DNA from: a virus
Lineage: Duplodnaviria > Heunggongvirae > Uroviricota > Caudoviricetes
Virus record (IMG/VR): IMGVR_UViG_2734482785_000014
Coordinates: 1-12,688 of that record
DNA length: 12,688 nucleotides
Direction: 5' to 3' (one strand)
A model generated the notes under the pieces. That model made no database searches and was not told the DNA's origin. It was given only the letters and a program-made list of their open reading frames with translations. This document shows positions 5,140 through 5,375 of this stretch, piece after piece (position 1 is the first letter of the stretch; each line of letters begins with the position of its first letter). A program made the translations under genes and the position numbers.

Positions 5140-5167
5140 TTTTTTCTCGCGTGTAGGGTGAAAATTT

Positions 5168-5312
5168 TGCGGGTTATGCGGGTTATTTCTGTGGATAAAT
5201 CAGTATCCATATGATTATTAAAGGAATGGCAGAAAAATCGTAACCCGTAAAATACCCAAAATAACCCGCAAAACGGCAGTTATAACCCGCAAAAGTGCGA
5301 TTATAACCCGCA
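5168..5312. repeat. Replication origin: ATAACCCGCA iterons flanking an AT-rich core
   Basis: Direct copies of ATAACCCGCA at 5261-5270, 5282-5291 and 5303-5312 (21-bp period), with degenerate copies at 5241-5249 and 5251-5260. Two inverted copies TGCGGGTTAT lie at 5168-5177 and 5177-5186. Between them is an AT-rich core with the inverted repeat TGGATA/TATCCA (5192-5209). Confidence 0.7.
5190..5198 (-). promoter_or_regulatory. Consensus DnaA box (TTATCCACA) inside the origin
   Basis: The + strand reads TGTGGATAA at 5190-5198, the reverse complement of TTATCCACA. A degenerate copy (TATCCATAT) lies in inverted orientation 6 nt away. Confidence 0.5.
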
Positions 5313-5375
5313 GAATTTCACCATAAGGGTGTAAACAAGCGTAACAATCAACGTTAAAACCGGAGAACAGACAGC

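Follow-up and report, generated by a model that had tools for sequence, protein, structure and literature searches.

A likely SaPI-type replication origin, with a lineage-specific DnaA box, in a capsid-forming PICI of Escherichia coli

Background

The replication origins of SaPIs lie just 3' of rep and are built around an A+T-rich region, with two or more iterons to either side of it and the two sets pointing opposite ways (PMC9371898). SaPI Rep proteins bind these iterons through a C-terminal winged helix, neither binding nor melting depends on ATP, and the Rep helicase loads itself, with no known helper (PMC9371898). PICIs of Gram-negative bacteria have iterons laid out as in the SaPIs, and one such replicon, that of EcCICFT073, has been subjected to a functional test (Fillol-Salom et al. 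2018, PMC6092414). The test covers the initiator class of EcCICFT073, not the DUF927 Rep class that is the subject of this article (PMC6092414).

Some PICIs form their own capsids. These cf-PICIs are about 10-18 kb in length and have modules for integration (an integrase), regulation, and replication (bioRxiv 10.1101/2025.02.11.637232). They encode their own capsid, protease, portal, connector, HNH protein, TerS, and TerL, and they lack genes for tails and lysis (bioRxiv 10.1101/2025.02.11.637232). PICIs embedded within their helpers are a further configuration, described in PMC10111431.

The DNA considered here, which I call the window, is a stretch of 12,688 nucleotides that makes up positions 1 to 12,688 of the virus record IMGVR_UViG_2734482785_000014. 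I propose that nucleotides 5140-5375 of the window are probably the vegetative replication origin of an E. coli cf-PICI, that this origin is of the SaPI/PICI type, and that the DnaA box found within it lies outside the core mechanism.

The island and its initiator

The window is a cf-PICI of E. coli. It encodes members of the Bro-N anti-repressor, Ash-like, DUF4222, DUF927, SSB, and PerC families, along with packaging and head proteins: an HK97 capsid, a protease, a portal, and a P27-family TerS. For its TerL, HNH endonuclease, and head-tail connector the names come from annotated close relatives, and the window contains no tail or lysis genes. The gene content is that of a cf-PICI, save for the integrase, which falls outside the window and is present in relatives that match it at 93-100% coverage. 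The best match amongst complete genomes is to E. coli 042 (93% coverage, 96.7% identity). The island of that strain, like those of KFu019 and 'strain 10', begins with an integrase and sits inside the large-terminase gene of a prophage, which it splits into two pseudogene halves. The terL halves occupy 4102-5130 and 21059-21802 in locus L001, where the island, read from int to terL, has the same orientation as the prophage terL. They occupy 1306-2334 and 17839 onwards in L002, and 2036-3064 and 18295-19038 in L170, again co-oriented with the inserted island. The islands of L001, L002, and L170 are helper-embedded cf-PICIs that bring with them a complete terminase of their own. The window carries no flanks and no int end.

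Upstream of the region of interest, Rfam recognizes isrK (80 bits, 1837-1913, plus strand) and C4 antisense RNA (75 bits, 1935-2022, plus strand), the elements of P4/P1-type RNA immunity. Both lie inside an open reading frame of 437 aa (955-2268), which for that reason is probably not one real gene. The annotation of E. coli 042 divides the same stretch into several small genes (YlcI/YnfO, Icd-like).

The gene that ends just before the gap was called a primase in the initial annotation, a name that the searches do not bear out. DUF927 is the sole significant family match of its 707-aa product, a domain search found no primase domain in it, and residues 1-155 match no family. Compared by sequence with the PDB, it finds 8tch (E=1.4e-14) and 5dgk (E=0.002), and the same two structures are the top Foldseek matches (E about 2e-6), obtained with an AlphaFold model that is poor, its pLDDT falling below 50 in the ATPase core and in the C-terminal domain. 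The first structure is the replication-initiation protein of SaPIbov1, which has helicase activity, and the second is the Cch helicase of SCCmec. To judge from these matches, the 707-aa protein (Rep) is an initiator-helicase related to SaPIbov1 Rep and Cch.

The two ends of Rep deserve separate mention. The N-terminal domain (encoded by 3016-3480) is confidently modelled as an alpha/beta fold. Some relatives are longer (824-949 aa), and the additional region at their N terminus resembles, by eye, a zinc-ribbon/Toprim-like primase module; this region is absent from the window's Rep. Relatives bearing differing N-terminal modules are found at L012, L013, and L094. The C-terminal domain matches the Pfam family HTH_56 ('Cch helix turn helix') below threshold, at E=6e-4 and with 20.3 bits where the cut-off is 26.2, and the corresponding domains of Reps from other iteron classes match the family more weakly. 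When the C-terminal domain was compared by itself with the sequences in the PDB, no match was returned.

Anatomy of the gap between rep and ssb

The stop codon of rep, at 5139, and the start of ssb, at 5376, are separated by 236 bp (5140-5375), with a G+C content of 39.8% compared with 51.5% for the window. The features within and around this gap are collected in Table 1.

Table 1. Coordinates of features in and around the proposed origin (positions in the window)
Feature	Position	Strand	Basis or remark
rep, predicted 707-aa DUF927 initiator-helicase	3016-5139	+	Pfam DUF927 E=7.5e-46
Rep C-terminal domain (about residues 601-707), putative iteron-recognition module	4816-5136	+	identity tracks iteron word
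CGCGTGTAGG motif just past rep stop	5148-5157	+	seen in relatives' sequences and in alignment
Inverted iteron 1, perfect ATAACCCGCA	5168-5177	-	in tandem with iteron 2
Inverted iteron 2, perfect ATAACCCGCA	5177-5186	-	9-bp period, in tandem with iteron 1
A+T-rich core, presumed melting site	5187-5239	.	53 bp, 69.8% A+T
Perfect DnaA box TTATCCACA (TGTGGATAA on + strand)	5190-5198	-	13 nt from start of inverted iteron 2
TGGATA-N6-TATCCA dyad	5192-5209	.	TGGATA 5192-5197, TATCCA 5204-5209
ATGATTATTAAAGGAAT block	5211-5227	+	conserved more widely than the rest of the core; reads ATGAWTWWAAAGGAA in types A to E
Direct iteron, degenerate GTAACCCGTA	5240-5249	+	GTAACCCGCA in closest relatives
Direct iteron remnant AAATACCCAA	about 5250-5259	+	degenerate
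Direct iteron, perfect ATAACCCGCA	5261-5270	+	
Direct iteron, perfect ATAACCCGCA	5282-5291	+	21 bp from copy at 5261
Direct iteron, perfect ATAACCCGCA	5303-5312	+	21 bp from copy at 5282
ssb, island single-strand DNA-binding protein	5376-5801	+	Pfam SSB E=3.8e-16; TIGR00621

A given 10-mer would be expected, by calculation, about 0.02 times in a sequence the length of the window. Exact ATAACCCGCA occurs five times in the 12.7 kb, every time inside 5168-5312. The first repeat begins 29 nt past the rep stop codon, which places the origin immediately 3' of its initiator gene. The two inverted iterons and the five direct ones have opposite orientations and lie on either side of the A+T-rich core, and successive direct copies are spaced by about 11, 11, 21, and 21 bp. 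The initial annotation had reported five direct repeats (three of them perfect, at 21-bp spacing) and two inverted tandem copies, and also an AT-rich core with a perfect DnaA box inside a TGGATA/TATCCA dyad; every one of these elements is found at the place it gave, the box at 5190-5198. Its interpretation of the region as an iteron origin fits both the position and the layout.

The origins of relatives fall into types that differ in the core. In type A, to which the window belongs, the core spans 53-54 bp; the commoner type B has a core of 44 bp, shorter by about one helical turn. Only type A origins have the dyad, which types B to E have not conserved. The block within the core fares better, ATGAWTWWAAAGGAA being conserved more widely than the DnaA box. 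A nearly identical block, TATGAATAAAAAGGG, is found at about 2705-2725 of L004, in a P4-type origin served by an unrelated, P4-alpha-like initiator. The block shared by the window and L004 could be an unwinding or host-factor element, or it could be the trace of a recombination.

Outside the iterons there is one more conserved element, the motif CGCGTGTAGG (consensus approximately YRYRTGTRAGG), which is kept across relatives of every iteron class; hence the variable C-terminal domain of Rep does not read it. It appears 5-15 nt after the stop codon, as CACATGTGAGG or CTGTGTGAGG in other loci (L005-L100). The gap contains no GATC site, so control by Dam/SeqA is rejected. Candidate IHF sites in the gap, sought by eye, all have at least two mismatches, and an Rfam search of the gap found no match.

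Iteron words and the C-terminal domain of Rep

Relatives of Rep are encoded at the 96 loci of the comparative set, which provide about 85 distinct origins, each taken as the first 300 nt past rep. By iteron these comprise 34 origins of the ATAACCCGCA class, 4 of the ATAACCCAC class, and 47 of other classes. All of the related loci share a layout that starts directly past the rep stop codon: the short motif comes first, then an inverted set of two or three tandem copies, then the A+T-rich core (44-60 bp), and then two direct repeats close together and two more at 21 bp, to which another direct repeat and a pair of inverted ones are often added. The layout is constant, and the word written in it is not. 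At least seven iteron words are found: ATAACCCGCA, ATAACCCAC, TGAACCAACA, TGAACCACG, TGAACCGG/GAC, TGGGACAA(C/G), and TGGGATAA.

Which word is used follows the last 105 or so residues of Rep. At ATAACCCGCA loci these residues are 80-100% identical to those of the window's Rep, and among them are loci whose residues 1-150 share only about 40-66% identity with it. The TGGGACAA-type loci present the opposite case: residues 151-600 are 82-97% identical to the window's, and the C-terminal 105 residues only 35-38%. Rep is thus a mosaic of three modules. Residues 1-150 are swapped independently, leaving the iterons unchanged, and neither they nor residues 151-600 track the word. Since the word tracks the C-terminal domain and no other part of the protein, nature appears to have performed a domain swap, one that supports cognate recognition of iterons by Rep and, with it, replicon specificity.

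The initial annotation held that the element defines replicon specificity, and the co-variation of iteron word with the C-terminal 105 or so residues, across about 85 distinct origins, speaks for that claim. The comparison supports the view that the two together, word and C-terminal domain, would set the specificity of the replicon. At least seven words, each tied to one version of a domain of about 105 residues on an otherwise nearly identical helicase, amount to a map of domain swaps. With such a map, replicon specificity and incompatibility amongst co-resident PICIs become testable, and a small recognition code comes into view.

Some relatives have a second cluster of iterons about 260-300 bp downstream, in the opposite orientation and with an A+T-rich stretch of its own. 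These are L104 (clusters at 5338-5355 and 5634-5651), L106, L122, L148, L164, L107, and L109. In these relatives the second cluster looks like part of a bipartite origin or like a crr-like second site. The window does not have it; ssb follows the origin directly.

The DnaA box

The gap holds a single DnaA box. Its presence is not readily ascribed to base composition: shuffling the gap yields the exact box in 0.27% of cases and shuffling the core in 0.06%, and the corresponding figures for the looser consensus TTATNCACA are 1.2% and 0.4%. A second perfect TTATCCACA is found in the window at 11844-11852 (minus strand), within the coding sequence of terL, and so a perfect box is by itself no proof of function.

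The distribution of the box amongst relatives is uneven. Exact TTATNCACA is present in 27 of the 34 distinct ATAACCCGCA origins (19 with TGTGTATAA, 7 with TGTGGATAA, and 1 with TGTGCATAA), and neither its place nor its orientation changes among them. The other seven consist of three with TGTGTGTAA and three with TGTATATAA, both of them one-mismatch variants, and one that was not parsed. None of the four ATAACCCAC origins has exact TTATNCACA; two have AGTGGATAA, one has GGTAGTTAA, and one has nothing. Nor is it found in any of the 47 origins of other iteron classes, where the position of the box holds no variant of it either. A scan of metagenomes added two further subtypes, one with GGTGGGTAA at the position of the box and the other with nothing there. 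The perfect box marks type A (54-nt core). Type A origins are here taken to be those of the 19 complete E. coli genomes, out of 5426, that cover at least 80% of a query spanning 5100-5400; about 520 complete E. coli genomes share some part of that region. On this distribution, the box is a lineage-specific detail of ATAACCCGCA origins and not a rule of the family.

A comparison of alignment columns detects no extra purifying selection on the box within types A and B. Amongst type A origins, none of the 8 box columns vary, compared with 6 of 45 others (p=0.57), and in type B, by column counts read by hand, 2 of 8 vary compared with about 13 of 35. In neither type did the box show extra conservation relative to neighbouring columns of the core.

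Where might the box have come from? It begins 12-13 nt after inverted iteron 2 and about 21 nt after iteron 1. At that position, beside GTGGGTTA iterons, L371 has GGTGGGTAA, type C has AGTGGATAA, and type A has TGTGGATAA. Arranged as a series, GTGGGTTA (the iteron), GGTGGGTAA, AGTGGATAA, TGTGGATAA, and TGTGTATAA look like a third inverted iteron in the course of drifting, and TAACCCACA, the reverse complement of the iteron, is identical to TTATCCACA at 7 of 9 positions. The DnaA box may accordingly be a third inverted iteron that has decayed. In type A considered alone the match to an iteron is 6 of 9, equalled by 28% of shuffles (P=0.28), which is not significant. Most likely the box is a third inverted iteron that has drifted, or else a site that is neutral or accessory.

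The origin of EcCICFT073 (L452, E. coli CFT073, 4140-4175) has a sequence of the same kind. There AGTGGATAA, one mismatch from a DnaA box, is embedded amongst the iteron variants GGTAGATA and GGTAGACA, and this near-box resembles an iteron variant.

A model for initiation and its alternatives

I propose that initiation takes place as follows. After induction, Rep would bind the iterons through its C-terminal helix-turn-helix domain of about 105 residues. One assembly would form on the two inverted copies at the left and another on the direct copies at the right, where the spacings (about 11, 11, 21, and 21 bp) would put all copies on one face of the helix, so that the two assemblies face each other across the core. 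Rep would then melt the 53-bp A+T-rich core and load itself as the replicative helicase, and SSB, from the next gene, would coat the single strands. Binding, melting, self-loading, and independence from DnaA are all inferred in this model, by homology to the related initiators.

It may be objected that the model leaves no role to a perfect DnaA box at the edge of an A+T-rich core. The initial annotation took the initiator and host DnaA to act together. On such a model DnaA, bound at 5190-5198, would help to open the core or would recruit DnaB and DnaG, as in the iteron plasmids pSC101, P1, F, and RK2. The box is indeed rare in shuffled sequence, and the 27 ATAACCCGCA origins that hold it in register include G, T, and C alleles at the free N, all of which keep TTATNCACA. 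Its place and orientation are retained across types A and B despite an indel of 10 bp and a diverged core. That no primase is recognized on the island also leaves room for dependence on a host factor, and priming by the host is conceivable. A perfect box of the R1/R4 type should be occupied by DnaA in vivo, and DnaA probably does bind at 5190-5198.

Occupancy is not the same as need, however. Rep is a helicase of the SaPI type, one that loads itself with no helper known (PMC9371898). None of the 47 origins of the other classes, whose Reps share the same helicase core, has the box, and it has decayed in the sister ATAACCCAC group. About a fifth of its own lineage (7 of 34 ATAACCCGCA origins) is without the consensus, and its columns are no better kept than those around it. 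The named hosts of the relatives are all Enterobacterales, whose DnaA proteins are expected to share the same box specificity. The gap has a single box and no GATC. Nor do other satellites come to the aid of the idea: 0 of 63 P4-alpha-like PICI origins have a box, and the 21 of 60 distinct P4-like crr flanks that have one always have it in variable cargo DNA. Joint action of initiator and DnaA, considered as a requirement, thus receives no comparative support, the box being broken in 6 of 34 ATAACCCGCA origins and present in 0 of the 47 from other classes. I regard this form of cooperation as unlikely. The box is probably not needed for replication, if the comparison of origins is a guide.

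The same figures bear on the broader notion of a general link between DnaA boxes and satellite origins, which is rejected. In P4 itself (L171), the only TTATNCACA is a perfect box at 4281-4289, 2 nt outside the annotated crr, and it starts exactly at the junction with the variable cargo DNA.

Any role for DnaA would be accessory. A modulating, non-essential role in type A islands is possible. A bolder version, rather improbable in my estimation, is that the self-loading-helicase origin of the E. coli ATAACCCGCA lineage has secondarily co-opted DnaA, which would aid or gate the melting of the core, or else that amplified copies of the island titrate DnaA. Were this so, it would be the first DnaA-assisted PICI origin, one in which an iteron has drifted into a site for a host factor, and (in the version where DnaA assists or gates) replication of the satellite would be tied to the initiation state of its host.

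Two other readings dispense with an origin altogether. The repeats might be an operator or regulatory array, for example one governing transcription of ssb and genes downstream or one bound by a regulator of the island. The array does lie directly upstream of ssb, and one weak promoter-like sequence, at 5226-5253, coincides in part with the first direct repeats, but the promoter scan found 1 site where 0.9 were expected by chance, and with the scan at chance level a promoter or terminator explanation of the gap is rejected. Also against an operator, the word co-varies with the C-terminal domain of Rep, and the layout matches the described origins of SaPIs and PICIs (PMC9371898, PMC6092414). 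In some relatives of types A and B, moreover, the downstream sequence differs and the repeats are still found with rep. An operator array is very improbable. As for a packaging site (cos or pac), one must exist somewhere for an island that encodes TerS, TerL, and an HNH endonuclease, but that it should be here is scarcely credible, given that HNH-type cos sites normally adjoin terS, that the repeats follow the C-terminal domain of Rep rather than the terminase genes, and that L168 has the same rep-adjacent layout in a fetched sequence from which capsid and terminase genes are absent.

Comparison with known replicons

The iteron plasmids pSC101, P1, F, R6K, and RK2 resemble the window in that one origin combines direct repeats and an A+T-rich region with a DnaA box. 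Their Rep proteins are small winged-helix proteins without helicase activity that need DnaA, DnaB, and DnaC (reviewed in PMC4980987). In the window, by contrast, the initiator would itself be the helicase, a DUF927 protein of 707 aa, and the family as a whole has not conserved the box, which occurs in 0 of 51 origins outside the ATAACCCGCA class. On both counts the window differs from DnaA-dependent iteron replicons of this kind.

Satellite phage P4 is another comparison. Its initiator-helicase, alpha, binds short repeats through a C-terminal domain, a crr cluster lies just 3' of alpha, and the C4/isrK RNA immunity elements of the P4 type are also found in the window. The differences are that alpha is annotated as a DNA primase, that its repeats are TGTTCACC, and that P4 needs two cis regions 4.5 kb apart, compared with the one cluster of the window. 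With no primase domain found and a different repeat word, the window was rejected as a replicon of the P4 alpha/ori-crr type. Islands with P4-alpha-like initiators have their repeats at the same position as the window, TGTTCACC in the case of L004 and TGTCTACC in that of EcCICFT073.

EcCICFT073 shares with the window the order DUF4222, initiator, origin, ssb, perC, and capsid, and also a pair of iteron sets that flank an A+T-rich region. It differs in initiator and repeats: there the initiator is P4-alpha-like, a 'DNA primase family protein', and the repeats are TGTCTACC, and here a DUF927 Rep goes with ATAACCCGCA. With different initiators and different iterons, the window cannot be equated with the replicon tested in EcCICFT073.

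As an island, the window is like cf-PICIs of the EcCIEDL933 type, with a packaging module of its own and no tail or lysis genes. The helper-embedded PICIs of PMC10111431 offer a further likeness, in that relatives of the window are likewise inserted in, and co-oriented with, a prophage terL. The passages considered from the cf-PICI and helper-embedded PICI papers (PMC10111431) describe no origin sequence and no DnaA box. A search of the literature found no earlier description of the ATAACCCGCA iteron word or of this DUF927 origin, nor of a DnaA box in a PICI origin.

There remains the comparison with the SaPIs. The differences are these: SaPIs are islands of S. aureus and the host of the window is Gram-negative; the repeats of the window are 10-13 nt long compared with 5-6 nt in SaPIs; the window has extra outer repeats at 21-bp spacing, an island ssb after the origin, and a DnaA box in the core; and no primase, separate or fused, is recognized in the window. 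In the window, as in SaPIbov1, SaPI1, and SaPI5, the origin is 3' of rep, iterons oppose one another across the core, the Reps are homologous (8tch), and specificity is associated with the C-terminal domain; its helicase is of the DUF927 Rep/Cch type. As origins of phage satellites go, this one is ordinary. It is of a kind already known, the self-loading origin of PICIs and SaPIs, of which the DUF927/ATAACCCGCA replicon is a member undescribed in the literature searched.
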